Positions 2,622 to 64,000 of a stretch of DNA of 64,000 nt are shown here, piece after piece. Position numbers and translations under genes: made by a program. Within the stretch, counting starts at the first letter, position 1; the number at the start of each line of letters is the position of its first letter. The stretch comes from an uncultured virus (IMG/VR IMGVR_UViG_3300028840_004599). Lineage: Duplodnaviria > Heunggongvirae > Uroviricota > Caudoviricetes. Under the pieces are notes generated by a model. The model was not told where the DNA came from. It worked only from the letters and a program-made list of their open reading frames with translations, and ran no database searches. The stretch is taken from the IMG/VR virus record IMGVR_UViG_3300028840_004599, one strand, 5' to 3'.

Positions 2622-2815
2622 TGTCTGAGAAACCAGAAGATATCGACACGTTACGTGTATCTGTTGACGGTGTAGATATAATAATACCTCCAGAGGAGCG
2701 TACGAGGTGCGAGGTTTGGACAAGAGTTATGGGTTATTTTCGCCCCATTGCCTATTTCAATGTTGGGAAGAAAAAAGAATACGAAGAACGTGTTAATTAT
2801 ATGGAGCCACAATGA
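2621..2815 (+). CDS. Stand-alone C-terminal glycyl-radical domain of class III ribonucleotide reductase (mini-NrdD)
   Basis: RTRCEVWTRVMGYFRP..FNVGKKKEYEER matches the NrdD C-terminal RVxGY motif. Confidence 0.85.
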   Translation: MSEKPEDIDTLRVSVDGVDIIIPPEERTRCEVWTRVMGYFRPIAYFNVGKKKEYEERVNYMEPQ

Positions 2816-4436: not shown

Positions 4437-4696
4437 GGGTATGAGCAACCAAAGATACGATGCGGGAGGAAAAGTTGTTAAAAGGTGCTAAGGTATTGAG
4501 ATTGTTGGAATTAGCCACTTTTTTATTTATCCGTAGTGGTGCAAAATGTCATAAAAGTGGTGTTTAAATGGTGTTGTGTAAAACATTAACATCGTGTTTA
4601 TATCGTGTTGTTAGGAGGTAGGTATGTGTGTTGAACAGGTCACATTATATTACGGTGATTGTTTGGAACAGGCGCAAGGGAATTTGTTGAGGGAGG

Positions 4697-9794: not shown

Positions 9795-10070
9795 ATGAGG
9801 AAACAAAACGTGGTTAAAGTTGTGGCAAATTGCATCATGTTGGCATTAATCTTGCTCTTATTATCAGCATGTGTTACATCTCAGGTAGAGTATGAAAAAG
9901 GGGATACAAAAGTGAAGGTCACTTATACATCATGGAAGAAGATATCATTAAGGCATACAGACCCAATAAGTGGGGCAATTACAACGCTGGATTCCAACCC
10001 CGATCCCTGGGCGAACTTAATCAAGGACGTGTTCCAAGCGGGTTTTGATGCCGGAAAGGCAGTCAAGTAG
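9795..10070 (+). CDS. Lipoprotein
   Basis: Signal peptide with LLSAC lipobox. Confidence 0.7.
   Translation: MRKQNVVKVVANCIMLALILLLLSACVTSQVEYEKGDTKVKVTYTSWKKISLRHTDPISGAITTLDSNPDPWANLIKDVFQAGFDAGKAVK
9840..9856 (+). promoter_or_regulatory. Possible sigma-54 promoter (intragenic)
   Basis: TTGGCATTAATCTTGCT fits TGGCAY-N5-TTGCW but lies inside a coding region. Confidence 0.35.
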
Positions 10071-19018: not shown

Positions 19019-19095
19019 GGGGCGGTAATTCAAGTGGTTAGAGTGCTCGGCTCATAACCGGGAGGTTGCAGGTTCGAATCCTGCTCGCCCTACCA
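19019..19095 (+). tRNA. tRNA with CAT anticodon (Ile2 or elongator Met)
   Basis: Full cloverleaf: acceptor GGGGCGG/TCGCCCT, D ATTC/GAGT, anticodon arm CTCGG-CTCATAA-CCGGG, T arm GCAGG-TTCGAAT-CCTGC, encoded CCA. Confidence 0.95.
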
Positions 19096-19380: not shown

Positions 19381-19458
19381 AACACCAAATTCAAAAGTGA
19401 TTATGAAAACCACACAAAGGGGACCATGGTAATATCTACCACCCTCACGAAATCGTAC

Positions 19459-19478
19459 ACTGTCCGAAAATCGTACAC
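19459..19478. promoter_or_regulatory. Quasi-palindromic site TGT(A/C)CGA-N3-TCGTACA, also at 26306-26325 and inverted at 28830-28849
   Basis: Three 20-bp copies differing by 1-2 nt. Confidence 0.75.
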
Positions 19479-19492
19479 ACATGTGTAATCCA

Positions 19493-19771
19493 TTACCCAT
19501 TTGCAATCTCTACCATATCCTCAACATCCATACCCAGAACCGGTATGGAATACATATCTATATAGGCATCAAAAGCTGTTTTAGCAGCTAGGGCATCAGG
19601 GAGAGTATAATACTCTACCCTCCCCGATTCCCACACAATCAGCACCCTGTTATTTTCCCACTCAACATTTCGTATTTCACCAACTAGTTCAAATCCACAT
19701 TCGAAAATCATATCCCCTTCCTGTATACCGCTTCTATATTCCTTGTAACTGCGCCTATTTGCTTTCTCCAT
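19493..19771 (-). CDS. Hypothetical protein
   Basis: AGGAG SD, coupled to RHH gene. Confidence 0.6.
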   Translation of the reverse strand: MEKANRRSYKEYRSGIQEGDMIFECGFELVGEIRNVEWENNRVLIVWESGRVEYYTLPDALAAKTAFDAYIDMYSIPVLGMDVEDMVEIANG

Positions 19772-19961
19772 AGACCTTTTCCATCTCCTTTTGTTTTTTC
19801 CATGCAGCCTCTTCCAAGTTTTGTTTGTACTCGATCAGGGCTTTCCTCACCACGCCAGCACAAGAGCTCTTATCTTTAGCTGCTTGTGTGGTGATAAACT
19901 CGCGTAACTCCCGATCCAAACTAATACCCATACGTAGAGACACCCGTGTATTAGTTGACAT
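19755..19961 (-). CDS. Ribbon-helix-helix (CopG/Arc) regulator
   Basis: RMGISLDRELREFITTQAAKDKSSCAGVVRKALIEY; GAGGAGGT SD before ATG 19961. Confidence 0.75.
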   Translation of the reverse strand: MSTNTRVSLRMGISLDRELREFITTQAAKDKSSCAGVVRKALIEYKQNLEEAAWKKQKEMEKVYGESK

Positions 19962-20011
19962 GTTTACCACCTCCTCACTTTTTATTATATACACCATGTT
20001 ATAAAAAGTTG

Positions 20012-20040
20012 TATATATGGTGGTATTGTGTGTATGTCAA
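20012..20040 (-). promoter_or_regulatory. Sigma-70-type promoter for the RHH gene
   Basis: TTGACA-N17-TATATA on minus strand. Confidence 0.7.
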
Positions 20041-20087
20041 GAGCTTTTTATGTTATTTTGGGAAAGGAGCAGGTTGCCCCTTCTTCG

Positions 20088-20552
20088 TTATTGTTCATCT
20101 TCATCAAAATTCATTTCCTTGATCGCTTCCAATAAATCAGATTTGTAAAACAGCATTGCATCGTCAAATCCCTCGTTCATCAATTGCAAACCAACATATC
20201 GGTATTTTCGTAAAGTGGGTTCGCAACCGTCAGGGAAATCAGTTATGGGAAACGGGATTGACGACTCGAAATCCAGGTTAATCAGATCATCGAAAAATTT
20301 TATGGATGATCTGACAACTGGGAGGGTTTTTATATATTCTCTGATTTCAGTTTTGTTTTTACCTGGTAGTGACGATGTCGGATACCAGTAAAATCCATCA
20401 GAGTCAACTCCCGCAATCCCTCCCTGAGTTTGACATTCCAAAGCATCTCCGCAATCCTCTTTTGCCAGAAACTTGACAAACGATTCCGCATTTGATCCGT
20501 CCTCTGGATTCCCCGCATTGACAATCTCTATTAGTTCTTGTTTCGTTTTCAT
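20088..20552 (-). CDS. Hypothetical protein
   Basis: GGAGG SD. Confidence 0.65.
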   Translation of the reverse strand: MKTKQELIEIVNAGNPEDGSNAESFVKFLAKEDCGDALECQTQGGIAGVDSDGFYWYPTSSLPGKNKTEIREYIKTLPVVRSSIKFFDDLINLDFESSIPFPITDFPDGCEPTLRKYRYVGLQLMNEGFDDAMLFYKSDLLEAIKEMNFDEDEQ

Positions 20553-20625
20553 ATTAAGCCTCCCGCGCTAATCTCTGACCTGGCAACCCAGGGCAGGGAA
20601 AGGGGCAGGAAGCCCCTTGTTGTTT

Positions 20626-20958
20626 TTACTCCTCCCTATTCAGGTGCGAGAGGTAAATATCCAGTTCCCCAAGTAGGAACTCGATATTGTACGACCCACC
20701 CCTGGTTACAATTGCTTGCCGGATGCAAAATCCGACAGGCACTTTCTTTTCTGGAATATATTTATATGTAGAGATTTCCCCAAATCCCCACAAATATGGA
20801 AGGAGAACCCACGAACGTCGTGGGTTTGACCCAAGATACCTGTGGTAGAGCCACTTAGGCAACACCTCAGGTATCTGGTACGCTCTTGCACCATCCTTTG
20901 GCACTCTGTAATGTCTGGGAAATTCATCCCAATTTTTGTGATAAAACAGAGTTTTCAT
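20626..20958 (-). CDS. Hypothetical protein
   Basis: Coupled ORF with SD. Confidence 0.6.
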   Translation of the reverse strand: MKTLFYHKNWDEFPRHYRVPKDGARAYQIPEVLPKWLYHRYLGSNPRRSWVLLPYLWGFGEISTYKYIPEKKVPVGFCIRQAIVTRGGSYNIEFLLGELDIYLSHLNREE

Positions 20959-21341
20959 TTTCCTCTCCTTTCACATAAATCTACAACCCAGCTGTCGTAA
21001 TCCTCATAGGTTTTTTGTTCTATTTCTTTGATCGTTGCTATTACGGTATCCCTATATTTTTCATGGGGAGCCGTGTCTGCCATCATCCAAGCATCCGTGA
21101 ATTCGTCGCAAAAAATAACCTCTATTGCCCCTGTATCACCAAGATTTATGACAACATCAGCCGATGGGTATGTTTTCTGTAGATTGTCATTCAAAACCTC
21201 ACAATACGTGGCAGATGATTTTCCTTGATCTGTTTTATCTAAGTCGCCTGGCATCCAGTAATGATAAAGCGAGTCTTCGTCAACGTCAATTGTAATACTC
21301 TCTATCATAGGATTACCATTTTTGTCTGTTTTTATTTTCAT
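20955..21341 (-). CDS. Acidic hypothetical protein
   Basis: Coupled ORF with SD. Confidence 0.65.
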   Translation of the reverse strand: MKIKTDKNGNPMIESITIDVDEDSLYHYWMPGDLDKTDQGKSSATYCEVLNDNLQKTYPSADVVINLGDTGAIEVIFCDEFTDAWMMADTAPHEKYRDTVIATIKEIEQKTYEDYDSWVVDLCERRGK

Positions 21342-21826
21342 TTCCCTTCTCCTTTCGATTTTTCAAATATTGTAATCATCTCCTGTAATTGTCTGATTTG
21401 AGACGTAAAACTACGCCTGTCCGAACCTGTGTAATAATTCCTTTTTCCTGTGGGGTCTTTTTTTGCCAGAAGATTTTTAAAATGTTGTAGTTTAGATTTT
21501 ACCTTCTCGATGCCTCCAAGAGATTCAATCCTTTCCAGTTGTCCATCTTTCCATTGTTTAACCTGATCTGATTCCTGTTTGCGAGTAGAAAGGCGAACAG
21601 ATTTCCGGTATTGCGGATCATCAATTATTTTTTTTGTGATGCTTACCATATCCTTGTAAGGTGTATCTGGATAACTGGCAACCGCACCCGCATAAACCTG
21701 ATGATGGTCGGAAAACCGGAACTCAAATTCGTCAAGAATCCGCACATAATATGATCCCGTTCCCGCTCGATGCACTTGCCCCTTGAACCTTTCGGCAAAT
21801 TGTTTTGATTTTTGTTTTGCGTTCAA
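21338..21826 (-). CDS. Hypothetical protein with RFSDH motif
   Basis: GGAGG SD before TTG 21826; GSYYV..FRFSDH. Confidence 0.65.
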   Translation of the reverse strand: MNAKQKSKQFAERFKGQVHRAGTGSYYVRILDEFEFRFSDHHQVYAGAVASYPDTPYKDMVSITKKIIDDPQYRKSVRLSTRKQESDQVKQWKDGQLERIESLGGIEKVKSKLQHFKNLLAKKDPTGKRNYYTGSDRRSFTSQIRQLQEMITIFEKSKGEGK

Positions 21827-21874
21827 CTTTTTTCCTCCTATCCAAAGTGATTGTGAAAACAACACAAAGACACC

Positions 21875-22270
21875 TTATCGTTTTGCATAAAGCCTCTTTG
21901 TCTCCTTCCTTGTTTCTCTCCTTGCCTCCCTTCTCTCCCTCTCCTTTTTCTTCTTTTCTCCTTTCCTCCACTCTTCCCAGGGTGTTTTCCTGTATAGCTC
22001 CTTCGTTCCTTCCCAGGGAAACTCCAAGCGGTATTCCTCTCCTCTCTGTGGACCTACTATTCCTATTTTCTGTTCGATCATACGCTTGCAGGGGATACAC
22101 GTCCACGTCGCATACACAGCTCCATTCCGGATTGTTACTTTTATGTCAATCTCACGTCCACAGACATTACATGTTACTGTATACCCGTCAATAGTAAAAG
22201 CTGTCAAGGCATCCTTCCTTTCTATTTCGTGCTTCTTTTTTTTAGCAACACCCGGGAGAACGAAGTGCAT
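21875..22270 (-). CDS. Zinc-ribbon protein with charged tail
   Basis: CNVC, CIPC; start uncertain. Confidence 0.5.
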   Translation of the reverse strand: MHFVLPGVAKKKKHEIERKDALTAFTIDGYTVTCNVCGREIDIKVTIRNGAVYATWTCIPCKRMIEQKIGIVGPQRGEEYRLEFPWEGTKELYRKTPWEEWRKGEKKKKERERREARRETRKETKRLYAKR

Positions 22271-22572
22271 CCTATGATGTTTTTCTCTTCATCCCTTACA
22301 GGATTCGGTATCAGAAAATCCCGTCTATCCGGATATGATTGAGCTATGAGGGAGCTCACAATGTAAAACACCCCATGTTTCCTGGAAGGTAATCCCGCGC
22401 AATTAGTGTACGTGTTATCATATATCGGGATAGTATTCCTTCCCAGTTCCACATAACCGGATTTAAATCCTTCACGTTTGAGTCTTGGTGGGTGTTTACA
22501 AGCTGGCAAGATGATATTACACCCGTTTCTAATGATCCTGACCTTGTGTGGTGTTAAGTTAATCAGTTCCAT
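22222..22572 (-). CDS. Conserved viral protein of the NLTPH family
   Basis: INLTPH..GLP..YIVS..RD..IIGC. Confidence 0.75.
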   Translation of the reverse strand: MELINLTPHKVRIIRNGCNIILPACKHPPRLKREGFKSGYVELGRNTIPIYDNTYTNCAGLPSRKHGVFYIVSSLIAQSYPDRRDFLIPNPVRDEEKNIIGCTSFSRVLLKKRSTK

Positions 22573-23320
22573 TGTTCTCCCCTCTCTTGATATGTTCCAT
22601 CACACCATATTCAATGGCTTCCCGGATAGTACGTTCCATATATTCACGATCATAGAAGCCAGAACAGACATCGTAAAAGAGCTGGGTGTGGTGTCGCTGA
22701 TAATGCTCCCTCTCCTCGATATAATACTCATCCTCATCCGTTTTTGCCTCGTATGCCTCGATGCAATACCCATACACTTCCCCATTAAAGTACTTGGTGT
22801 ATCTGTCACAAGCTTCCCTTGCCATATTCCTGTATGCATCCACAACCGCGACTTCGCCAAGACCCAGCTTTCTCCTGTTTTGCGTTTCCACGGTTTCGAT
22901 ACAGATTTCATCAGGTATCCATACTCCGGCAGCGTCGCAAAAGTCACCATCTAGTGGATTAGTCTGATCTCCTGATACACTCCAGGAACACCCAGAATGC
23001 TCGTAGTAATCAAGCAGCACACATCTACGCAGCTTCCCATCACACAGGTCTTCCACGTTATCCGGGTGTATGTAATTGGTATGGCGTTTGTTAAACGAGT
23101 ATATTTTACCCTCTCCATCAAACTCCTCTTGTGGGTTTTCGATACATTCACCTTGTACGATTTCTGTAAAAACAATAATATTCGTGGAATTGCCCAGTTC
23201 TAGGATGTTGATTTCTGACTCACCCGCCTCACCCGGAATATCCAAAGCTTTTATAGCTTCCTCAATTTCGTTTTCTGTTTTCTCTGTTTTCTCTGTTTTC
23301 TCTATTTTCTCTATTTTCAT
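22559..23320 (-). CDS. Conserved phage hypothetical protein
   Basis: YEHSG, Y.NGEVYGY, CSGFY; N-terminal EK(I/T) repeats. Confidence 0.7.
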   Translation of the reverse strand: MKIEKIEKTEKTEKTENEIEEAIKALDIPGEAGESEINILELGNSTNIIVFTEIVQGECIENPQEEFDGEGKIYSFNKRHTNYIHPDNVEDLCDGKLRRCVLLDYYEHSGCSWSVSGDQTNPLDGDFCDAAGVWIPDEICIETVETQNRRKLGLGEVAVVDAYRNMAREACDRYTKYFNGEVYGYCIEAYEAKTDEDEYYIEEREHYQRHHTQLFYDVCSGFYDREYMERTIREAIEYGVMEHIKRGENNGTD

Positions 23321-23402
23321 GGTACTTCTCCTCTCGTTCCTATTTCGTTTATTTCGTTACATCTCTAACTCTGAGTGATTGCCAGACACACACAAAGTTG
23401 CT

Positions 23403-25124
23403 TTATCCCTCTATCTTTTCATAGCTGTATGTATTTGTATCCTCGTCATAATGAAACCGTACCTGATCCAACATTATCACGTCCGGAATGTCTGATCCTG
23501 GAAGCTCCTCTTCCCTGTGCTCAATGCCCAAGTCCTCCAATACCGTTATAAGGGTAACGATGTTGGCATAAGGGGAAACTTCCCCACCCTCATAAATTAC
23601 GTGTGTTTGGATAACTCCAAGCAGTTTATTGCATACACTCCACGGGATTTCCGTTACTCTATCCCATTCACTAGTTGTAATGATTCCCTCCAGGTTCTCA
23701 TACAGCTCGTTTTGTGCCTTGTTGTTGTATGTGTTTCTCCCGATTGAGAAAGGCATACACAGGGAGATAGTATCGCCTTTTTTGTATCGCGGATCCTTAC
23801 TAACAATAACGGGTTTTCTTCGATGCCATACATGCAGGTAGGCGGTCGCATTTTTATCATCGTCATCAATACCTGCCATATCAAGCGCGTTCTCCAATCT
23901 ATGCAGATGGAACGCCAAGAAGGGTTCATTCCAGTCTGTGGGAGTCAGTATGCCGGTATGCAGGTTAAATTGGCATTCCACAGGCATATTAAATGTAATA
24001 TTCTCATCCTCATATTTTGCCAAGAATCTGCTGTTGCCCTCGTTATTTTCATAATCACGAACAAAGGTGATGTAATCGAACACCCCCTTTCCTCTTTTAA
24101 TGATATCCCGTAATTGTTGAACCGGGATTCCCAGCGTATAGCTGAAACGTGGGGGCAATACCATTTTGTAATTCGGGTATTCCTCATTGTTTTGCGCGAT
24201 TTGTATCCTGTACCCGTACGGGATTATTTCGAGTATTCGTCTATTGAGATGCTCCCAAACAAAGAAGCTCGTATAGTTATGTATGCGCGCTTTTATGAGA
24301 GTACATCGTGTAGATTTAGGCTTCAAAACAGATTGAACGAATTTAAGAACCTGCCAGGGAATCAGTTCATCCGTGTGCAAGTTACCCACTGTATCAGGTT
24401 TTAACGTGTCTACCGGGTAATTCTCCAAATGTGAGCTAGTTCCGCCACGGCTGTATTCGTACAGATTCACCCCGTCACAAGCTGCAAAGACCTGCCCATG
24501 TTCCTCAATCCTCACAACTGCATTCCTTACTATGGTTCTTCTTTCGGTTTTGTTTATGGGAATGAGGAGCTTTTTAAAAAGTGATCTAGTTTCCCTCACA
24601 AACAGGGAAAAGCTGGTTGAGTCAATCGGTCTGTTGCTATTCGCCAAGCGATAATCCTCATCTTCACCAACAAGCGCGGGAGTTAAACCGGTTTTCGTGT
24701 AGAATCCCTCAGAACCAATATAGACAGATTCCCCTTTTAAAACCCCTTCAGCACCCTCTTTCAACAGCCTGCTCATTCCTCTGAGTTCATCAGGTGGGAT
24801 TACAAAGGCAAATTCCTTGTATAGGTGGGTTTCTCCAATACATGTTGTAATATTTACATCCGGAATACGGTTTTGTTTCCGGGTAAGGGTGAGGAAAACG
24901 CTTCCTTGTGGCTTCGAGTAGATAATACCGCCAAGCGCAGCCTCCTTTTCCGCCAACATGTAACTGGTAAGGAGTTTTTTAGTGTGCTGAGCTCCTTCTT
25001 TAGATACTGTAAAAATCTGTCCTTGTGTGGTTTCCTGTTTTATTTCTTGTTCCTGTTTTTGTTCCTGTTTTTGTTCCTGTTTTTGTTCCTGTTTTTGTTC
25101 CTGTTTCATTTCTTGTGTTTCCAT
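23403..25124 (-). CDS. Divergent DNA polymerase III beta sliding clamp homologue with extensions
   Basis: AACDGVNL (ATDGHRL), LIPWQVL (IIPRK.L), YPNYKMVLP (FPDY.RVIP), LAFHLHRLENAL (IGFN..YL.DAL), SLCMP (L.MP) in DnaN order. Confidence 0.7.
   Translation of the reverse strand: METQEMKQEQKQEQKQEQKQEQKQEQEIKQETTQGQIFTVSKEGAQHTKKLLTSYMLAEKEAALGGIIYSKPQGSVFLTLTRKQNRIPDVNITTCIGETHLYKEFAFVIPPDELRGMSRLLKEGAEGVLKGESVYIGSEGFYTKTGLTPALVGEDEDYRLANSNRPIDSTSFSLFVRETRSLFKKLLIPINKTERRTIVRNAVVRIEEHGQVFAACDGVNLYEYSRGGTSSHLENYPVDTLKPDTVGNLHTDELIPWQVLKFVQSVLKPKSTRCTLIKARIHNYTSFFVWEHLNRRILEIIPYGYRIQIAQNNEEYPNYKMVLPPRFSYTLGIPVQQLRDIIKRGKGVFDYITFVRDYENNEGNSRFLAKYEDENITFNMPVECQFNLHTGILTPTDWNEPFLAFHLHRLENALDMAGIDDDDKNATAYLHVWHRRKPVIVSKDPRYKKGDTISLCMPFSIGRNTYNNKAQNELYENLEGIITTSEWDRVTEIPWSVCNKLLGVIQTHVIYEGGEVSPYANIVTLITVLEDLGIEHREEELPGSDIPDVIMLDQVRFHYDEDTNTYSYEKIEG
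25046..25106. repeat. 12-bp tandem repeat encoding (QEQK)n
   Basis: TTCCTGTTTTTG repeated about five times. Confidence 0.9.
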
Positions 25125-25352
25125 AATAATTCTCCCTTCAATTTTTTAAATTTTTAAATACAAAAGTGATTGCAATATACCCACAAAAGTACACATACAT
25201 ACAGCACTGTCACACTGTGCCACATTGACACAGCATCAATTATGTGTCAATTTGCACCATTTAGGATATGGGGTTTCTAAGAACGCTATAGATTCGTGTA
25301 TCCCTTGGTTTCCTTAAAGAGAAATCTCCATAGCTTTCAATGTGGTTTAGGC

Positions 25353-25384
25353 AAAAAAAGAAAAAGGGGAGTGTTGAACTCCCC
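25353..25384 (-). terminator. Intrinsic terminator
   Basis: GGGGAGT/ACTCCCC hairpin followed on minus strand by long T tract, just after the 25390 stop. Confidence 0.8.
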
Positions 25385-25389
25385 ATATA

Positions 25390-26208
25390 TCAATAACCTT
25401 CACGTTCTTTTTCTATGAGATATTGAGCTTGGTCCCGAAAAAGACTCTCCCATATTTCCAAAAGCAAATCTTCATCAGAACCAGACAGGATCACTTGTGC
25501 GCCATCAGACCAGTTTAAGAACCAGTATTCAACGAGATGAACGGAACAATCCGGATTTACATAAAACCGGAATTCGTCACCCGGACCGCCAGTTGACAAT
25601 TGCCAACGGAAATATCCTTCTCTCTGGTCTGTGAAGGTTCCTGGGGAAACATAATCAAAACAGAGACCGTACTCATTGATATTTCCAAGGTCTTCCTTGA
25701 TAGCTTCGAAGATGGTGTCTTTAAGGTCTTCCAAGTCAGGATTGTATTCAAGAATCTGTTGTTTTTCTTCTTCTGTGTCACAAGAAAGGATTTCCTGTTC
25801 CTTGTATTTTTCTTGATATTCCTGCAGCTCCTTTTCTGACAATTCCCCTTCCAAGGTGTCAACATCGTCTGTTTCCACTGCCCACATAAGCCGCAAATCG
25901 TGAATTGTCCTGTCAAGTTCATCTTGAACGATATCCGCGCATTTTATTTGTTGTTTGTCAGTTACAAGGGGAAGCTGTGAAGATATGAACTCCATCCAAT
26001 CTTCTGTGCTGCAAAGGAAACACTCTTTGGGGTGTGTGTAGTTGAAATCTTTCCAAATCAGTACTTTACCTCGGTTTTCCCCATGAAGATTTTTTCCGTA
26101 AAATACATCTCCTGTAATCCCCGCAACAAATTTCAAAGTCTGTACATTCTTTAAAAATGTACCCTTTTCACCAAAACTCTTGATTTCCTCTTCACTTAGT
26201 TTTTTCAT
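25390..26208 (-). CDS. Conserved phage hypothetical protein
   Basis: YFRWQLSTGGPGDEFRF motif; strong SD. Confidence 0.75.
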   Translation of the reverse strand: MKKLSEEEIKSFGEKGTFLKNVQTLKFVAGITGDVFYGKNLHGENRGKVLIWKDFNYTHPKECFLCSTEDWMEFISSQLPLVTDKQQIKCADIVQDELDRTIHDLRLMWAVETDDVDTLEGELSEKELQEYQEKYKEQEILSCDTEEEKQQILEYNPDLEDLKDTIFEAIKEDLGNINEYGLCFDYVSPGTFTDQREGYFRWQLSTGGPGDEFRFYVNPDCSVHLVEYWFLNWSDGAQVILSGSDEDLLLEIWESLFRDQAQYLIEKEREGY

Positions 26209-26350
26209 TTTTAACTCTCCTTTTTTTAAATTTTAAATTCAAAAGTGATTGTGAAATAAACACAAACACACAATTACACACACACAAATAAACTGCTTCC
26301 CAAGCACTGTACGAAAATCGTACACATGTCAGGGGCAGGAAGCCCCCCCC

Positions 26351-26611
26351 TTACCCAAAATAGATTTCCACCAGACGGTCAGTTTCTTCCTCATCTGCCA
26401 CATCGTCGTTTTTGTGCAAATACGCGAATTGGGATGCTTCCTCTTCACATATTGGGCGTACATCCCAGTCTCCAAATCTCTCTCTGTTTCGGGTCAAAAC
26501 GTAATATTTGCCCTCATATAGATAGAGGGTTTCCATGTAGGGGCTTACGGGATCATCGCTGCCCACAAACCCACAAATCTCGTGACCGTCGTCGATTAAT
26601 TTAGTTTTCAT
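26351..26611 (-). CDS. Acidic hypothetical protein
   Basis: AGGAGATATTAAAAATG leader. Confidence 0.65.
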   Translation of the reverse strand: MKTKLIDDGHEICGFVGSDDPVSPYMETLYLYEGKYYVLTRNRERFGDWDVRPICEEEASQFAYLHKNDDVADEEETDRLVEIYFG

Positions 26612-26780
26612 TTTTAATATCTCCTTTTTTTAAATTTTTAAATATAAAATTGTGTGGAAACAACGAAAGCATTTGTTCTTGTGTTTCATACATTTTTAAC
26701 AATCTCCCTTCTTTATTTTTATATTTGGTTACACTTTGGAACCAAACATCAAAAAGAAAAAGGGAGCTATCCCTTATTCG

Positions 26781-26954
26781 CTAATAAAACAAAACAAGCT
26801 CCCTGGAATTGTCAAGGTTGACATGACGCTCCCCTTTTCGGATTGCGTCTAAGATGCCCTCTTTGTGATCCTCAAACACCTCGCGGAAAATACACGGGAT
26901 GAGGGTTTTTTCGCCCTTAAACCGTTTATAGATTTCGCACAGTCTAACACTCAT
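26781..26954 (-). CDS. Small hypothetical protein (57 aa, not in ORF track)
   Basis: GGAGG SD; MSVRLCEIYKRFKGEKTLIP...RELVLFY. Confidence 0.55.
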   Translation of the reverse strand: MSVRLCEIYKRFKGEKTLIPCIFREVFEDHKEGILDAIRKGERHVNLDNSRELVLFY

Positions 26955-26987
26955 GTTTATTTCCTCCCTTCGTTATCTCGCTTTAAC

Positions 26988-27689
26988 TTATGCATATCCT
27001 ATACCAAAGCATCTTTTTAGATAATTTTCCACTTCCCCGGCTATTCGGCTTTTCCAGTTTTGCCACATATCCCCATCGATGTAAAGCAGCTCAACAAATG
27101 TGCGTATTCGCCTTTGGTACAACACAGACAAAAGAAATTGTGTGGAAACAACTTGTTTCTTGATGCATCGTTTGAGATAACGCCTTAAACGTCCTTTTTC
27201 CCCTTTATCCAGGGGAATCTCATAATAATATGATTCCATCTCCTCTTCTTTTTCGCCTTGAGGAAATTTGTCATACTGTTTGATGACATTACAATATTGC
27301 TTGATCAGGGTTTTGATCTCGTCTTTTTCCCTGTCGTTTTTTCGTGGGTTTAAAACGTTTCCTTCCCGGTCAATCCTTATTCCATCGTAAAAGATTGATT
27401 CCGGTCCGGTTTTGTTTCCGTTCTTGTTCCATACATACCAGATTCCCTGTTTTTGTTGGATTATTACCCGAGTTTGAAATCTGTTGATCCTATCCTTGGT
27501 TGTGGGTGTGTACCAGTCTCCAGTATTCAATGTCATAATACCGGTTTTCTTATTGACGGAAATGACATCCGTTTCATGGAGACGAATACACTCCTTTCTT
27601 AGCGTTTTATACCAAATGGTATTATTCGCCACAAATTTGGATTTAATGGGGTTTAATTCCCCTAAGATTTCGCTTTTTCGTTTTTTCAT
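26988..27689 (-). CDS. Conserved phage hypothetical protein
   Basis: LHETDV..LNTGDWYTPTTKDRIN; start moved to 27689 by shared leader. Confidence 0.7.
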   Translation of the reverse strand: MKKRKSEILGELNPIKSKFVANNTIWYKTLRKECIRLHETDVISVNKKTGIMTLNTGDWYTPTTKDRINRFQTRVIIQQKQGIWYVWNKNGNKTGPESIFYDGIRIDREGNVLNPRKNDREKDEIKTLIKQYCNVIKQYDKFPQGEKEEEMESYYYEIPLDKGEKGRLRRYLKRCIKKQVVSTQFLLSVLYQRRIRTFVELLYIDGDMWQNWKSRIAGEVENYLKRCFGIGYA

Positions 27690-27768
27690 TTTTAATATCT
27701 CCTTTCGTTTTTTAAATTTTAAATTCAAAAGTGATTGTGATAGTAGCACAAAGGCATACTCAACAAGC

Positions 27769-28092
27769 TCACTCATCGCTAATTGAAACGGCATCTAAAA
27801 ATTTATCCCAAGCATCATCGCCATAGCAATCGATTGCCATAGCAATGAACTCATAACGCGTATCGCCGATGTCGTCGTCAAAATCGTCAATATCGTTAAT
27901 AGTATCTACCAGGACGTCATCCGCATCGCCATAACCCGAAAACCCCTGGGTTTTGGCGTTGCATGTATCATCAGCCCGATGCCAGTAAACATCGCAACCG
28001 TAACCGGTATCACCTCGTTTGTGGTCAAACCAGTCCCAAATAGCACCGAAATACTGAGACAGTAGCTCGATGGTTTTGTTTTTTTTATTCAT
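27769..28092 (-). CDS. Acidic hypothetical protein
   Basis: GAGGAG SD before MNKKNK. Confidence 0.6.
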   Translation of the reverse strand: MNKKNKTIELLSQYFGAIWDWFDHKRGDTGYGCDVYWHRADDTCNAKTQGFSGYGDADDVLVDTINDIDDFDDDIGDTRYEFIAMAIDCYGDDAWDKFLDAVSISDE

Positions 28093-28145
28093 GATAAATC
28101 TCCTCGTGATATAATTCTGCATTTCTTTACTGAATCTCTACAATC

Positions 28146-28364
28146 CTAGTAAACCATAACCTTGAGATCAGGTGTGATGCCGGTCCTTGTACCATTGGGC
28201 AAGATTGCATCATCCGTGATCCCTAACTCCCCACTGCAATCACAATCCATAGACCCACACAGTGTGAGTTTCAACTTCTTCGCTTGTCCAGGCGATATGG
28301 TATTCCCCCGAACCATAATTGTGCATTTTGATTTGTGATACCGGTTTTCAAACGTTACTTTCAT
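28146..28364 (-). CDS. Hypothetical protein, first gene of leftward block
   Basis: Shared leader; LCGSMDCDCSG. Confidence 0.65.
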   Translation of the reverse strand: MKVTFENRYHKSKCTIMVRGNTISPGQAKKLKLTLCGSMDCDCSGELGITDDAILPNGTRTGITPDLKVMVY

Positions 28365-28678
28365 TTTTAATATCTCCTCTCATCTATTTAATTTGACCAA
28401 AACAACACAATAACAATCACACAACGCACCACACTTGTCAAGCTCTGGATACGTTTTTTTTCATTTATTTGTACGTTTACATCACGTACATACAAGATAT
28501 TGTACACACTGGTTATGTATGTACTATATGTACTGTATGTGGATAAAATAAATACATGCACAAGACAAGGTAATTCAACATTGTGTGTGTTTCATGCATG
28601 ATTGCACAGTGTGATATTTTAACTATGCGAGGAATTATACAAACTTATTAAGACTTGCCTTTAGTTGTAGTTTGGCTT

Positions 28679-28976
28679 TGTGCGAAAATCCGCACGATTG
28701 CACAATAATTGTGCAATATACCTTGTATTACTAGGTATGCCATATTTTGACGTTTTTCAATGGGTTTTAGTGTACACGATTGATATCCCTGGATATCTGC
28801 ATCATACAAATCTTATGCACTGGGGGGGAGTGTACGAATTTCGGACAGTTGGTGTAAACATAAGCGATGCTTGCCCTCACGAATTTTTCAGGTATTTTCC
28901 ATCGGGCTTTGTGCCTATTTTCGCACATCCTTAAAATCTCGCCTCCCGATAACGCAGAAATGCATCATTTTGTTGC
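28679..28976. promoter_or_regulatory. Array of palindromic, enhancer-like binding sites
   Basis: 28679-28696 and inverted copy 28910-28927; TTGCACAATAATTGTGCAA 28698-28716; TGTACGAATTTCGGACA 28831-28847. Confidence 0.65.
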
Positions 28977-49838: not shown

Positions 49839-50320
49839 TGAAGATCGAACTAAAACGACTCATTGACGTACTTTTTGTTTTGTTCCTTTTTGGAGCTTTA
49901 CTACGACCATCAGTTGCACAGGACGATTATAGGTTGGATAGGAGTGTGCCCGGTTTTGCTGGGTACACTCTCTCCTATCCTGTTTTTGGCGGGACTTATA
50001 ATCAGGCATCCTTAACAACTACTACGGTAGCTACCATAGCCAGTGATTTGAGCTCAGCAACCGTACAGTATAATATTACATCCACAGATACGCTCACCGT
50101 TTCGGAAGTGTGGATTCAAACCTCTGTAGATTCCAGATGGACGTTGGACAATAACACAAACCCAACATCTGTTACTGGTATCCTACTGTCAGCCGATGAT
50201 ACCTTGAAGCTCCCCGGGAACAGCGCACGATGGTTGCGTATTATAGGGGTAAGCTCTTCTGGTTACATCCGCAAGCAATATTTTGGATGGCCTACCTCAT
50301 ATTATTACCCTTGGGAGTAG
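49838..50320 (+). CDS. Beta-rich protein with probable signal peptide
   Basis: MKIELKRLIDVLFVLFLFGALLRPSVA-QD; RWT.D...PT...G..L. Confidence 0.65.
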   Translation: MKIELKRLIDVLFVLFLFGALLRPSVAQDDYRLDRSVPGFAGYTLSYPVFGGTYNQASLTTTTVATIASDLSSATVQYNITSTDTLTVSEVWIQTSVDSRWTLDNNTNPTSVTGILLSADDTLKLPGNSARWLRIIGVSSSGYIRKQYFGWPTSYYYPWE

Positions 50321-58640: not shown

Positions 58641-58823
58641 ATGCAATACAAAAAGGAAACAGTAGTAGTAGAGTTATCGAGTCATTGTGTGCTCACACAG
58701 AGTGGCTATGTTGTTGAGTCTTCCGGTAGACCCGGGGATACGATAATTGTGCTCAAAATTGCAGGTTGTGTAAAGGGCACACACTTTACAGAGGTACTAC
58801 GCAGACCGGATAGGGGGGAATAG
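58641..58823 (+). CDS. Small tail-module protein
   Basis: GAGGT SD. Confidence 0.5.
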   Translation: MQYKKETVVVELSSHCVLTQSGYVVESSGRPGDTIIVLKIAGCVKGTHFTEVLRRPDRGE

Positions 58824-59194
58824 TGTTGTTAGACATACAAGACACGAACACATCGGACGATGAAAAGAGGATACAAACCAAGCGAACATTGGTTGTTAGT
58901 GGGAACAGCTATGAGAAGTCCTTACAGCATGGCACTGTGGCTGTAGAGTTTGTACGCGACTCCAACGGCAAGATACAAGTAGATGAGAACAACGCGCCAA
59001 TTGTCGAGTTGGACACAAACGGAAATCCCAAGCAGGGTCCTATACTATTACGGTGGAACCCAGAAGCGTATACAAAGGATGGGAAGACGTATGGAGCCTG
59101 GGTATCCGATGATGGGATAGGGGGTAGTGGGGTAGCCGTAAACTACTACAACATAGTTTCCTTGGGATTTTGTATAGATGAGACGGAAGCCTAA
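58823..59194 (+). CDS. Hypothetical tail-module protein
   Basis: Coupled ORF. Confidence 0.6.
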   Translation: MLLDIQDTNTSDDEKRIQTKRTLVVSGNSYEKSLQHGTVAVEFVRDSNGKIQVDENNAPIVELDTNGNPKQGPILLRWNPEAYTKDGKTYGAWVSDDGIGGSGVAVNYYNIVSLGFCIDETEA

Positions 59195-59197
59195 ATG

Positions 59198-59235
59198 AAG
59201 AAAGAACACAGAGTCGAAACCCTGTGCCCTCTCTT
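59198..59235 (-). terminator. Minus-strand UUCG hairpin (terminator or sRNA body)
   Basis: GAGAGGGCACAGGGT-TTCG-ACTCTGTGTTCTTTC pairs fully with four G-U on minus strand. Confidence 0.7.
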
Positions 59236-59262
59236 TTTTGGGGGTCAAATAAGGATATAGCA

Positions 59263-59279
59263 AGCAAGAATCGTGCCAG
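59263..59279 (-). promoter_or_regulatory. Sigma-54 promoter, antisense to tail operon
   Basis: CTGGCACGATTCTTGCT is a full match to YTGGCACG-N4-TTGCW. Confidence 0.7.
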
Positions 59280-61171
59280 TTAGTACAACATTTGCAGGAA
59301 ATATACTAAATCAGGACAAGGTTGCTCTACCAAGACTTACTGGTGGCCAGTCCAATTTTGATGGATATCCTGGTATTTTTGGTCTGTTTGTTCCAGATTC
59401 ATTTGTATCTGGGTATTGTTCAGCCTGCTGCAAGTGCGCTTCTCATGACGCAGCTATTATGGTTGGTGTTAAAGTAGGTAAGCACGCTCCCGAGGCTGTA
59501 TTTTACCCAGAATACAGATATACGCATGAAGATTTGTTATATCTGCATAATGCGCTTTATCTGACATATTATATTTATTATGGGGTTGAGTATGACCTTT
59601 TATACAACTCAGGGTGGACAGCTGACAATATTTCTCAACAACGAACATACACCATCGTAGACACGTCTTTGTCTGATCCGGTATTGAGCTCCAACCAGCT
59701 TCGGCTTCGGGGTGATAACCCGAGGCATTTGCAAACGGGCGACTCACAGCCTAACCCAGATTGGTATGGGAATGGGGGTGACGAGGGTAATCGCCTAATT
59801 ACGGTAGACTCATTCCACTGCTTGCCAATCGGTTCTATGGGAGTATTTCATTTCCCTTCCGTACTTAGACTAAAGCAGCTTCCATGCTTGACAAAGGTTG
59901 AGGATGTGACGGCGGTTGGTGATGGCGAATACGAGTTTATAGCTACTCTGTCAAATGCCTGTTCGTATGCAAAGTACCCCGATGATCAGAAATACGGTGA
60001 CGTGTCTGAGTACAGTATAACATTCTATTATTATAAAACGACCCCAATGGATTGGCCTGACATACAGCCATCTCCGAATACTGGGTGGACTCGCGAGACA
60101 GTGAGTTTAGAATCTGGAGATTTGGTAGAGGGCGTCTATACAATATCGGATAGAATATTGTATCCAGGCTTGGTGGATGTTGGTGGTCTAACGTTGTTTG
60201 GCTGTGTGGTTAGGGACGGACACAATAGGTATCCCGTATCCTTTGGCAGTTTATCAGTATCCACGCAACAATCTGGTGGTTCTTGGACGGTTCAAATAGA
60301 CTTTTCTTCCATAACGTCTTTTGATACAATCGAATTAATGTATTTTAGGGAGGCTTCCGGAAGCGACGATGTGTGGTTCAGAACCCGATCATCGTGTACA
60401 AATTCCAAGCGAGAGTGGTCTGGTTCATACACCCACGATACAAACAATTATTGTGCTGCTTATATAGGCTCTGATGGGAACCCACAATCGTCTGTTGCCC
60501 CATTCAAAGCAAACTTCTGTGACGAGTGTTGGCAACCGGAATGTCCAAATTTTACACTGACACCAGTATTTGATTGTAACGACCCTGCATGGCTTAATCG
60601 TTTTTGGAATAGTGTGGATATGGTCATGTCCCAAGGTATTCCTGGGTGTTCTAATCACAGAAATTTCTCTATAGACGTTGTTTCCATGCCATCTTTACGG
60701 CAGGTTGCGGGTTTTTACGAGACTGCAACATCTACGGGTGTGGGACACGCAACAAAGTACTTATATCACGATGCTGCTTGCGGACAGCTTGAAGAGAGTA
60801 GCACCAGCTTATATCTTAGGCATGGAGCTCTTTGGGGCAGGGATGGCAATGGTGAAGAATTTGACATGGCAGATATGTTGAATTCCAGAGCTGGTTTATT
60901 TCCGGAAGACGTATCCGGTTATGAGACAAAAAAGGGACAATTGGGTCAAACGTACGATGATGATATAGATGCAACTGGTGCTTTACGCAGATTCCCTTTC
61001 CACAATACAGGAGAAACGCACCTTTATCAATATACTACCAGTAATCATGGTTACTGTATGACTCAGGGTCGTAGAGAGAATATTCAGCTTATTATTTCTG
61101 GTTTTAATGAGAATGATTATCTGACGGACGATCAAGAGCTAGACGTGGCAGATATAAGGAGCTTATACTAA
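59273..61171 (+). CDS. Large Cys-rich tail-module protein
   Basis: 632 aa; CSACCKC, CDECWQPEC. Confidence 0.7.
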   Translation: MPVSTTFAGNILNQDKVALPRLTGGQSNFDGYPGIFGLFVPDSFVSGYCSACCKCASHDAAIMVGVKVGKHAPEAVFYPEYRYTHEDLLYLHNALYLTYYIYYGVEYDLLYNSGWTADNISQQRTYTIVDTSLSDPVLSSNQLRLRGDNPRHLQTGDSQPNPDWYGNGGDEGNRLITVDSFHCLPIGSMGVFHFPSVLRLKQLPCLTKVEDVTAVGDGEYEFIATLSNACSYAKYPDDQKYGDVSEYSITFYYYKTTPMDWPDIQPSPNTGWTRETVSLESGDLVEGVYTISDRILYPGLVDVGGLTLFGCVVRDGHNRYPVSFGSLSVSTQQSGGSWTVQIDFSSITSFDTIELMYFREASGSDDVWFRTRSSCTNSKREWSGSYTHDTNNYCAAYIGSDGNPQSSVAPFKANFCDECWQPECPNFTLTPVFDCNDPAWLNRFWNSVDMVMSQGIPGCSNHRNFSIDVVSMPSLRQVAGFYETATSTGVGHATKYLYHDAACGQLEESSTSLYLRHGALWGRDGNGEEFDMADMLNSRAGLFPEDVSGYETKKGQLGQTYDDDIDATGALRRFPFHNTGETHLYQYTTSNHGYCMTQGRRENIQLIISGFNENDYLTDDQELDVADIRSLY

Positions 61172-64000
61172 TGGGTCAAGCAGGATGTTCATATGGGTTT
61201 GCAACGAAGCTAGTGCCCCCGATAAATATTGATGGGAAACAGTATACACTTTTGGTTCGTTTCCACGATTACCCATCATTGGGTAATGATGATGAGATAG
61301 TATCTGGTGAGATAGAATCAGTTGTGGATATCGGCGGTGGTTACAAGAAAATTGTGTGTGCGTTGGGCAGATATTATTTTTCTCAAACTCATGTGCTCGG
61401 TGCTGGCAACTCGTATGAGGAAGTAGTAATGTATTATGCTGGTGGAAACATTTGTATAGCACCTGAACCTGCCATAGGCTCATATTGTTACTCGGATGCG
61501 AAGGCAACTACGGGACCCAACTCCGCAAATCGGGCACAGGACGGGCACACTCTTATATGGAATAATAAGAAGTTTCTTATAACAAAAGCCTTAGCATTTC
61601 ATGAAGCTCCAGATAGTATTAGCTGGCAACTTGGCAATAGATCACAAGGGGAGCGTATAACAGTTGGGTTGGTTGGAGAGGATGATTTTAAGGGTTGGCA
61701 GTTCCCGTTAAGCACTTATAATGCAAATGATGTGGCAATAGATACGACACTTGGTGACATATACGACGATGCAGGAATAACGTGGGAGGACACAGCTGTT
61801 GAGTCCGGTTCGTGTTCACGAAAGATTTTTTTGTCATCCCCTGACTATTTCCCATCGGATGCTTGTTTGGACTTTGCAGAGTTTTGGTACGACCCAATAC
61901 ACTACGGACTTCGTTTTTGCTCTACCAACGCTCTTCGCGCCGGTGATAGCAAGCCCTGGAGTGATGTAGACCTGCTCAAAGTGACTTGGTATGCGCGGGA
62001 TATACAAGGTGAGATGACGTTAGGCACGACAAAAGTATTTGCGTTCGAGGGTGACGGTGATGGTTTATCCGATTCCGGCGATAGTATAGCGACAATATTC
62101 GATACCGTAGAGAGACCAGACCCATTTGCTCTCCATAGTCAGCAGATTACTATTGGCAAGTCTATTGGTAGTGAATCCGGCTTGATGTGGCGAGAAGATT
62201 ATTCTGCCGATTCTCCATTTATTGCTTGGGTTTATGACGAGGACGGAAATGTTACACTTAAATATAGATTGTTGCAGGGAGGATCAATATCATCCAACCC
62301 TGTATCGGGTACTCACCCAATCCCGGTAACACTAAAGCTTGAGGAGATATCCGCAGGCACAATCAGGGCATGGTATGATGTGGGGGCTGGTTTTGTCCTT
62401 CATGATACAATCTCGCTTGATCTCACATATTCGTGGTTTGGTGGTGTGTTTGGCTCCTCTGGCTCTTCAATACGGGCATATTTCAACGCAGATACCGATG
62501 TTGAGGTTCTGCCCGTAGGCACAAATTCTGATTCTGGTGTTTTGTCATATCGTCTTGATAATGAGGTGTATACGCCATATGCCACAAAATGGTATTGGGA
62601 GCACGATAAGCCGTTTACAGGGGATATAGAAGAGATACGCAACGTATCAGCAGATGTGGATATGACATTGGTTGTTACGGGAACAGACCTACAACGGGAT
62701 ACGTACATGATATCCGGGAGCACACTAATATTTAGTCAAGAAGCATTCGGTGATAGTGTAACAGCAACATATGATAGTGATGAATCTTTGTCTGCCCCGG
62801 GAAGATGCCCAGGCGGACCAAAGAACTTTTCAAATGACGATGGTGTGGTTGAGCACAATATAGGTCAATATCGGGATTGTCTATACGTTTATGATCCAAA
62901 TGGGGAGCTTACGGCAATAGGCGGTGAGGACTTTTCTGTGATAACCAGTTCGGGGTTTGATCCTAGGACAACATTTTCATTGTATTATGACGAGGAAAAC
63001 AACGCAAGTACGGATTTTACACAGATACCGGATGGGTCTCTTATAAAAAATGCCTTGTCACGCTATGTATTGGTTGAGGATGTTTGGGTGGAAAGCAACA
63101 TATTTGCCAATAAACGATATTGTTTTGAAGGTGTTGGTTCAAGGTTTGTACGATTTAATGGTGCGTCCCCACGTTACCTTAATGAGGCTCGGGACTGCAT
63201 ACAGACATTAAATACTTGTCGTGTGTCTATAACACAGGGAGATGGTGCTCATATTTGCGGGGAAGGACAGATGTACCCGGTTCCCACTACACGTTTTTGT
63301 GATGAGGAGGGCAACAATGTATGGGGAGGGTGGACTGTGGGCGTTACCGGTGCGCATGTTGATAGAGAAAAAGCGAATGCGTGGTTTCAAAAACGGTCTG
63401 GAACCCGGTGGTTTCAGGCTTTTTCTTATTTCGGTAACAGGATAGCGACACCAGGAATCGTCCTCCCGTATGGGTGGATGGAGATTGATGGAGTTCCTGA
63501 ACAGGGCGATTTACATTACAATCTGGGTGGTATATGCCAAACGTATAAGGAGTATTATACGCAGTGCCCAGGGTTGGCTTTGCAGGGGATGTGTTCCGGT
63601 GGTGCGTTAAACCCTTCCGTGGGGTGGTGTTCTGACGGTTATTGCGGCGACCCACTTACACCCTCCGAATGGTATGAGGGTGATCGCGGTATCACCAATG
63701 CCATGGCGACATTTTTCGCGTGGGCTTCCACAGGGGGGCAAGATTTTTGTGGGTGCAATTACTACGAGAGTTGGGCGGTGGGACATGAGGAAATATCTCC
63801 AGAGTTTAATTTTACGCCTACGTATTTCCAGCCGGGAAATCGGTTGAAGAGAATGCTGGATAACACCACAATAAATTGGGCGAAGATGGAATTTGAGCTG
63901 AGTGGGGCTTGGCAACGGGTGAGAAACAAGGAATGGGATGCTACTGTTGTTGTGAACGATATTGATGGTATTGGGGAAAACTTCTCGTTCAGCCTCATGA
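61171..64000 (+). CDS. Very large tail-module protein, truncated by window end (not in ORF track)
   Basis: ATG overlaps previous TAA; MGQAGCSYGFATKLVPP...; frame open in all stretches I translated, including the last 800 nt. Confidence 0.75.
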   Translation, partial: MGQAGCSYGFATKLVPPINIDGKQYTLLVRFHDYPSLGNDDEIVSGEIESVVDIGGGYKKIVCALGRYYFSQTHVLGAGNSYEEVVMYYAGGNICIAPEPAIGSYCYSDAKATTGPNSANRAQDGHTLIWNNKKFLITKALAFHEAPDSISWQLGNRSQGERITVGLVGEDDFKGWQFPLSTYNANDVAIDTTLGDIYDDAGITWEDTAVESGSCSRKIFLSSPDYFPSDACLDFAEFWYDPIHYGLRFCSTNALRAGDSKPWSDVDLLKVTWYARDIQGEMTLGTTKVFAFEGDGDGLSDSGDSIATIFDTVERPDPFALHSQQITIGKSIGSESGLMWREDYSADSPFIAWVYDEDGNVTLKYRLLQGGSISSNPVSGTHPIPVTLKLEEISAGTIRAWYDVGAGFVLHDTISLDLTYSWFGGVFGSSGSSIRAYFNADTDVEVLPVGTNSDSGVLSYRLDNEVYTPYATKWYWEHDKPFTGDIEEIRNVSADVDMTLVVTGTDLQRDTYMISGSTLIFSQEAFGDSVTATYDSDESLSAPGRCPGGPKNFSNDDGVVEHNIGQYRDCLYVYDPNGELTAIGGEDFSVITSSGFDPRTTFSLYYDEENNASTDFTQIPDGSLIKNALSRYVLVEDVWVESNIFANKRYCFEGVGSRFVRFNGASPRYLNEARDCIQTLNTCRVSITQGDGAHICGEGQMYPVPTTRFCDEEGNNVWGGWTVGVTGAHVDREKANAWFQKRSGTRWFQAFSYFGNRIATPGIVLPYGWMEIDGVPEQGDLHYNLGGICQTYKEYYTQCPGLALQGMCSGGALNPSVGWCSDGYCGDPLTPSEWYEGDRGITNAMATFFAWASTGGQDFCGCNYYESWAVGHEEISPEFNFTPTYFQPGNRLKRMLDNTTINWAKMEFELSGAWQRVRNKEWDATVVVNDIDGIGENFSFSLM

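Follow-up and report, generated by a model that had tools for sequence, protein, structure and literature searches.

A putative sigma-54 promoter and hairpin in a late-region spacer of a tailed phage, read as a predicted antisense small RNA unit

Close to where the plus-strand late region of an uncultured phage ends, the 78-nt gap between a 123-aa gene and a 632-aa gene holds a long hairpin, and at the downstream edge of the gap a sigma-54-like motif on the minus strand points toward it. The question raised by this locus is whether motif and hairpin form a transcription unit for a small RNA opposed to the late transcript and, if so, what such an RNA would do. The DNA analyzed (64,000 nucleotides, hereafter the window) corresponds to bases 1–64000 of a 66,191-bp virus record that has 144-bp direct terminal repeats and is rated complete; coordinates with the prefix G000 refer to the full 66,191-bp record and are used for sites beyond the window. 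Since genes for an integrase, a DNA polymerase, a terminase, a portal protein and head and connector proteins are present, we take the virus to be a tailed and probably temperate phage. The public DNA runs that contain the stretch are sediment and seawater metagenomes, and no RNA run is listed as containing it. In the search for a host, the integrase had no relatives at E 1e-30 and only distant phage matches, and all Atlas matches fell below threshold.

The features of the locus are as follows.

58823..59194, plus strand: upstream 123-aa gene, with no homologue outside this phage
59193..59252, minus strand: predicted small RNA of 54–60 nt, from motif spacing and folding
59195..59260, plus strand: 21-codon ORF whose ATG adjoins the stop codon of the 123-aa gene and whose TAG lies 12 nt ahead of the GTG of the 632-aa gene
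59198..59235, minus strand: 17-bp hairpin with a UUCG loop and four G-U pairs, its 3' arm entering a U-rich tract
59236..59252, minus strand: unpaired 5' end of 15–17 nt with a five-C run, a putative toehold or seed taken from the fold
59250..59256, plus strand: displaced Shine-Dalgarno (SD)-like TAAGGAT, 15–16 nt before the GTG
59263..59279, minus strand: sigma-54 (−24/−12) consensus CTGGCACGATTCTTGCT, a putative promoter from its sequence match
59273..61171, plus strand: 632-aa gene, its GTG start backed by homologue N-termini
61171..64000, plus strand: 1088-aa gene, extending beyond the window to G000 64437 and traveling as a module with the 632-aa gene

Motif, hairpin and predicted RNA

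Sigma-54 promoters have GG at −24 and GC at −12 and are served by upstream activator sites, often with an IHF site. On the minus strand, CTGGCACGATTCTTGCT places the GG at 59277–59276 and the GC at 59265–59264 with exact spacing, as a sigma-54 promoter should; in its −24 half it overlaps codons 1 and 2 of the 632-aa gene (GTG-CCA-G). Scored against a 13-position consensus that we took as standard (E. coli examples in PMC4591121), the site matches at 13/13 positions and is the only one in the genome to do so (expected mean 0.01 in 100 Markov genomes); it is also the sole exact match among 8 window sites with at most one mismatch. The perfect consensus claimed by the original prediction, on the minus strand and overlapping the GTG of the 632-aa gene, is thus borne out. 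A promoter scan called no sigma-70 promoter at the spacer site. Within 450 bp upstream of the focal promoter we found no NtrC-like, TGT-N10-ACA or IHF-like box; the same 450 bp hold three unrelated palindrome rows, all in coding sequence. Neither a phage-encoded sigma-54 (PF04552) nor an activator (PF00158) was detected (0/1 genome each, with controls positive in 4 and 14 of 14).

The hairpin had been described as having 15 bp and a UUCG loop; it is real, although its uninterrupted stem is 17 bp, the longest in the genome. The loop is closed by a U-A pair; extra-stable UUCG loops have C-G closure. The 38-nt stem-loop folds with −22.3 kcal/mol on the minus strand vs. −9.2 on the plus strand, and for a 51-nt minus-strand stretch the z-score is −4.57, with none of 200 shuffles as stable. 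On the plus strand the fold has −17.3 kcal/mol, with a T run after it, and is not significant (17/200 shuffles as stable). The hairpin ranks as the third most stable 44-nt window of the genome. Taken alone the stem is moderately unusual (at least 17 bp in 10/200 Markov genomes, p ~0.05), and hairpins of equal stability exist inside coding sequence of this genome. On the minus strand it is likely an intrinsic terminator: the inner 8–11 bp of the stem are followed by 5–6 U in 8 nt. The terminator scan did not call the focal hairpin; the probable reason is that the U run is taken up into the long stem.

The four minus-strand G-U pairs become A-C on the plus strand, and this asymmetry had been offered as a sign of selection on minus-strand RNA. 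That argument falls away, since a random 17-bp stem averages 5.4 G-U pairs vs. the 4 seen here and 4 of 13 other top genome hairpins are equally strand-asymmetric (difference of at least 8.8 kcal/mol), so that the asymmetry is not separate evidence of selection. Long strand-asymmetric hairpins also lie within predicted coding sequence at 27815–27848, 19595–19628 and 49941–49971.

It is the pairing of motif and stem that exceeds chance. A core motif followed by a stem of at least 13 bp within 60 nt occurred in 0/200 simulated genomes, and a permutation in which six randomly placed sites were matched to any of five real stems gave p 0.013. The spacer feature is real and is probably a transcription unit.

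By the rule that places the start by distance from the motif centre, taken from PMC4591121, the +1 would fall at 59252 (19 bp from the motif centre and 17 nt before the stem), in agreement with the earlier placement near 59251, and the RNA would end at the U-rich run near 59197–59193. Neither a start codon nor an SD lies between the +1 and the hairpin, and both minus-strand TTG ORFs in the area (59040–59267 and 59048–59263) begin within the promoter, upstream of the +1; the original statement that no gene fits between promoter and hairpin is correct. That a discrete RNA can be made from the spacer at all seems to us fairly probable. The predicted RNA would lie across the spacer and the 21-codon plus-strand ORF and would take in 3 nt of the displaced SD. 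An antisense RNA of about 55 nt to the translation start region had been proposed, of which the size and the unit stand; the GTG is not covered, as the predicted 5' end lies 21 nt upstream of it and leaves most of the ribosome footprint uncovered too.

Rfam gave no match at the gathering score (best weak scores 25 vs. 90 and 17.5 vs. 50 bits). Within the phage, the 5' end pairs strongly with the cis site alone (−25.7 vs. −18.6), which is no proof of function since any antisense unit automatically has such a partner. No significant trans target emerged among 72 phage start regions (p 0.215) or among 76 (p 0.08–0.14). The predicted RNA does not mirror the leader tag GGAGGTTGTTTG, and it lacked a c4-like multi-target signal against shuffled seeds (p 0.08–0.215). 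The tag itself is common to several plus-strand early genes (window 5544, 11078, 11310, 13627 and 14040).

Sigma-54 motifs across the genome

The core TGGCAY-N5-TTGC is present in 6 copies in the genome vs. 0.26 expected, with a maximum of 2 in 200 simulations. Besides the focal copy these are:

28992, plus strand: sense, before a 711-aa gene
35613, plus strand: sense, 54 nt before a 236-aa gene that precedes Sak4-like, ERCC4 and polymerase genes
G000 64471, plus strand: sense, after the 1088-aa gene and just upstream of a gene
9841, plus strand, and 41321, minus strand: inside coding sequence

With this enrichment and three copies in sense upstream of genes, the phage likely uses host sigma-54. 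The sense copies stand before replication and accessory virion genes, which suggests a sigma-54 regulon without a phage activator; the copies at 9841 and 41321 may be chance. Two palindromes lie side by side at 28680–28720; one of them, perfect over 21 bp and of what we take to be NtrC-box shape, is 293 bp upstream of the 28992 motif. The 35613 motif has a half-like box 51 bp upstream. Without an activated host enhancer protein sigma-54 does not fire, and a unit of the kind predicted in the spacer would tie one virion module to host physiology in an all-or-none manner. Six core motifs vs. 0.26 expected may be a more solid lead than the small RNA unit.

The late-region junctions (n = 20 after dropping 2 of 22 listed, where intervening genes existed) are all 38 nt or shorter with two exceptions, the focal 78-nt gap and one of ~100 nt that follows the 1088-aa gene; each of these long gaps contains a sigma-54 motif. 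In the second of them, at G000 64437–64490, the sigma-54 motif forms the 3' arm of a plus-strand 15-bp stem with G-U pairing. On either side of the 632/1088 module there is thus a sigma-54 motif that faces outward and is associated with a hairpin.

A wider scheme can be drawn in which transcription of two replication operons and one accessory virion operon starts from sigma-54 promoters and the antisense RNA restrains a swappable distal-tail module, so that tail completion would be gated by a host signal via a host activator. We regard this scheme as unlikely as it stands.

The junction on the plus strand and in a relative

The GTG at 59273 is likely the start of the 632-aa gene, since the second Met of the nearest homologue aligns there and the family begins there; GTG is the start codon in 6/22 late genes. 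It has the weakest canonical SD among 27 correctly placed starts (−0.5 kcal/mol; 2 of 29 starts were left out for wrong coordinates), so the 632-aa gene likely relies on the spacer for its translation. The best SD-like site is displaced because the −12 half of the promoter occupies the usual SD position. The 21-codon ORF spans the hairpin, is in frame with both neighbor genes, has a weak SD (−3.5) and has no NCBIfam match; it is possibly a coupling peptide, or else chance.

Several other identities for the spacer were considered and rejected. Read-through of the TAG, fusing the 21-codon ORF to the 632-aa protein, does not fit homologues that start at or after the GTG, and there is no suppressor tRNA; the tRNA/tmRNA scan of the genome returned only a tRNA-Met at 19019, which also disposes of a tRNA/tmRNA or att-site remnant at the spacer. 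Judged on inspection against the traits of type I toxin-antitoxin families, the 21-aa peptide is charged and is not a membrane helix. The genome holds no second copy of the spacer and the DNA fold is weak (−8.2/−3.8 kcal/mol), contrary to a repeated or mobile DNA element, and a Pfam scan of 76 ORFs contained no reverse transcriptase, as a diversity-generating hairpin would call for.

A profile search places the 632-aa protein in an unannotated family with 99 representatives of ~600–650 aa. The protein is Cys-rich, and its confident structural model (pLDDT 83.8) has no fold match at E 0.001 among solved or viral structures, and the protein has no Pfam, PHROG, NCBIfam, PDB-sequence, annotated-phage or Atlas match. 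The label of distal tail genes used in the original prediction agrees with the late-region position and finds no family or fold match, so that the tail role of the 632-aa protein is assigned from position.

One independent relative with DNA is available (L006; the records L007 and L009 are identical to it). It has 47% identity in the 632-aa protein and 56% across the first 943 residues of the 1088-aa protein, and its upstream tail genes are unrelated save for a short GFCxD end shared with the 123-aa gene (E 0.18). The 632/1088 genes are thus common to both phages and the upstream tail genes are not, which makes the spacer a module boundary. At the corresponding junction of L006 a single nucleotide separates the upstream stop from the ATG, with no spacer, hairpin, promoter or inserted gene, and neither the core sigma-54 motif nor spacer DNA occurs in its records (0/2). 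Conservation of the promoter or hairpin in relatives, or an inserted gene in their place, had been named among the checks on the original prediction, and in the sole relative with DNA all are absent, so that one of the two halves of its refuting condition goes against it. On present data the element appears lineage-specific, which would fit an insertion, without support from conservation. The DNA of L006 is too diverged to fix insertion boundaries. Base composition is not distinct (spacer GC 42% vs. 44–47% in the flanks).

Viral scans returned the identical phage, one true relative, two spurious loci, or nothing, and two genome scans were empty. Two of four public DNA runs span the region and show no variant, joint or insertion, and these runs are possibly this DNA's own source. 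A homologue of the 790-aa gene (L006 7–2169 vs. window 249–2621) lies before the tail genes in L006 and after the 632/1088 module here, a mosaic exchange of modules.

Precedents and competing readings

Phages are already known to encode short RNAs at insertion sites and antisense RNAs directed at distal virion genes, and occasionally to use sigma-54; a phage small RNA under sigma-54, or a phage sigma-54 regulon, was not found in the main text of open-licence papers. The closest comparison is to AsxR and AgvB, anti-sRNAs of EHEC prophages described in PMC4104026 as 51–60 nt long, with a 14–18-nt variable 5' part and a ~42-nt 3' part, situated at moron sites and convergent on late transcripts. 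The predicted RNA resembles them in its 54–60 nt, its 15–17 nt of free 5' end and its structured 3' part, a likeness in size that depends on predicted ends, and in its place, since both kinds are coded where an insertion occurred in a temperate phage and run against its late transcript. According to PMC4104026, AsxR and AgvB are multicopy RNAs located downstream of PR' close to lysis genes, and their action is in trans and depends on Hfq, whereas the unit here, predicted from sequence, exists once, lies in the tail region and follows a sigma-54 motif, and shows neither their conserved 42-nt 3' sequence nor an Rfam family.

STnc6030 of prophage BTP1, as described in PMC7067206, is antisense to an injection/tailspike junction, blocks superinfection and is proposed to destabilize late mRNA. 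The likeness is in the antisense position at a distal virion gene junction in the late operon of a temperate phage; however, STnc6030 is 786 nt long, runs over coding sequence and has demonstrated expression and superinfection exclusion, in contrast to ~55–60 nt predicted in a non-coding spacer. The bacterial sRNAs GlmY and GlmZ are sigma-54-dependent (PMC3045617) and share with the predicted RNA a non-coding product of a −24/−12 promoter, but they are chromosomal, conserved and equipped with an activator (GlrR) and IHF sites, of which none was found here within 450 bp upstream. A lambdoid moron is one gene, equipped with a promoter and a terminator of its own, that sits between two genes adjacent to each other in related phages (definition as quoted in PMC4378225); the spacer has its own putative promoter and terminator, and its flanks abut in L006 (1-nt gap; one relative, upstream genes not homologous), but there is no coding region and, as noted, no distinct GC. 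Pseudomonas phage YuA offers an example of phage use of a host sigma-54-type promoter, P015, the one such promoter that PMC10914365 reports, vs. six core motifs here, one of them facing backwards into a hairpin. The spacer unit might best be described as a sigma-54 version of the known phage small antisense or moron-site RNAs, seen in one lineage.

Of the parts of the original prediction, a promoter-plus-terminator unit of ~55–60 nt, backed by motif enrichment and adjacency, remains the best reading, and the prediction is supported in part. The account we favor, tentatively, is a lineage-specific, gene-less, moron-like unit whose small RNA would act in cis on the late mRNA. A host activator (the phage encodes none) would fire the minus-strand promoter, and host sigma-54 polymerase would make an RNA of 55–60 nt ending at the 17-bp hairpin. 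The free C-rich 5' end would nucleate on the late mRNA, and the resulting duplex would extend over the 21-codon ORF as far as the edge of the displaced SD, where it could cut translational coupling or invite double-strand RNase cleavage at the junction. The result would be less output from the 632- and 1088-aa genes, with the possible role of damping leaky or superinfecting late transcripts, or of holding the distal module back as long as the replication operons linked to sigma-54 are active. Against this cis account stand the absence of the element from the sole relative with DNA, the start codon missed by the RNA, the lack of an activator or IHF box within 450 bp upstream, the stem p of ~0.05 with its chance-like G-U pattern, the location of 2/6 motifs in coding sequence and the apparent transcriptional inactivity of most E. 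coli sigma-54 sites (PMC4591121). The same miss of the start codon favors action of the 55–60-nt RNA in trans, on host mRNAs or sRNAs via the C-rich 5' end, as an “RNA moron” under a host sigma-54 signal, and so do the AsxR/AgvB-like shape (15–17 nt free, a 38-nt hairpin and a U tail) and the existence of bacterial sigma-54 sRNAs such as GlmY/GlmZ. This is a lesser possibility, given that neither the 72 (p 0.215) nor the 76 (p 0.08–0.14) phage start regions held a significant target, that the five-C run may be merely the complement of an old G-rich SD and that no Rfam family is matched; we would nonetheless place it close to the cis account, since AsxR and AgvB share the size and placement yet act in trans.

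Other explanations dispense with a regulatory RNA. The minus-strand terminator may act as an insulator that shields the upstream tail genes from antisense transcription arising in the acquired 632/1088 module or at a cryptic sigma-54 site, the short RNA being a by-product, and in a variant the weak plus-strand fold could attenuate the late transcript. The module boundary at the spacer, shared on one side only with L006, the absence of an activator box near the promoter and the plus-strand fold of −17.3 kcal/mol with its T run are consistent with such an insulator, but L006 has the same module without a terminator there, a neutralized cryptic site need not be the best motif of the genome and the plus-strand fold is not significant (17/200 shuffles), so we think it unlikely. 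Quite unlikely in our estimate is the earlier suggestion of an empty moron, in which a small accessory gene on the minus strand was lost and its promoter and terminator stayed behind. It agrees with the definition of a moron and with the tight junction of L006, but no filled version was found in L006, in the 2 public contig sets spanning the region (possibly the same source) or in a viral pattern scan whose 1 match was the identical phage, and there is no SD or gene remnant after the +1, the promoter is undecayed and the spacer GC (42%) is like that of the flanks (44–47%).

Coincidence would require that the motif arise from the letters of the GTG-CCA start together with an A-rich leader, with a chance or duplication-born inverted repeat beside it. 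The 6/22 late genes that start with GTG, the equally stable hairpins in coding sequence, the stem p of ~0.05 and the lack of conservation all lean this way, but the joint event was absent from 200 simulations, its permutation p is 0.013 and the motif is enriched genome-wide, which leaves coincidence improbable. A polymerase roadblock, in which an idle sigma-54 polymerase at the site lowers late transcription into the distal genes, draws on the report that the holoenzyme binds promoters without firing (PMC4591121), and the site is a perfect consensus. The tuning of tail genes that had been proposed on this basis is, however, very improbable: in E. coli, PMC4591121 gives down-regulation in just 3/85 genes with internal sites (p 0.47), so that the effect was sought there and was absent, and a roadblock leaves the hairpin unexplained.

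Three further observations were made elsewhere in this phage. A repeated leader motif (families D2–D5) precedes several minus-strand early genes at window 19391–28394, and these repeats are likely operator or promoter boxes. At window 2621–2815 there is a stand-alone 64-aa protein matching the C-terminal end of the anaerobic ribonucleotide reductase NrdD. The gap after the integrase at window 4437–4696 carries 11-bp-spaced repeats, with a similar repeat at G000 64460; these resemble arm-type sites and make the gap a candidate attP.
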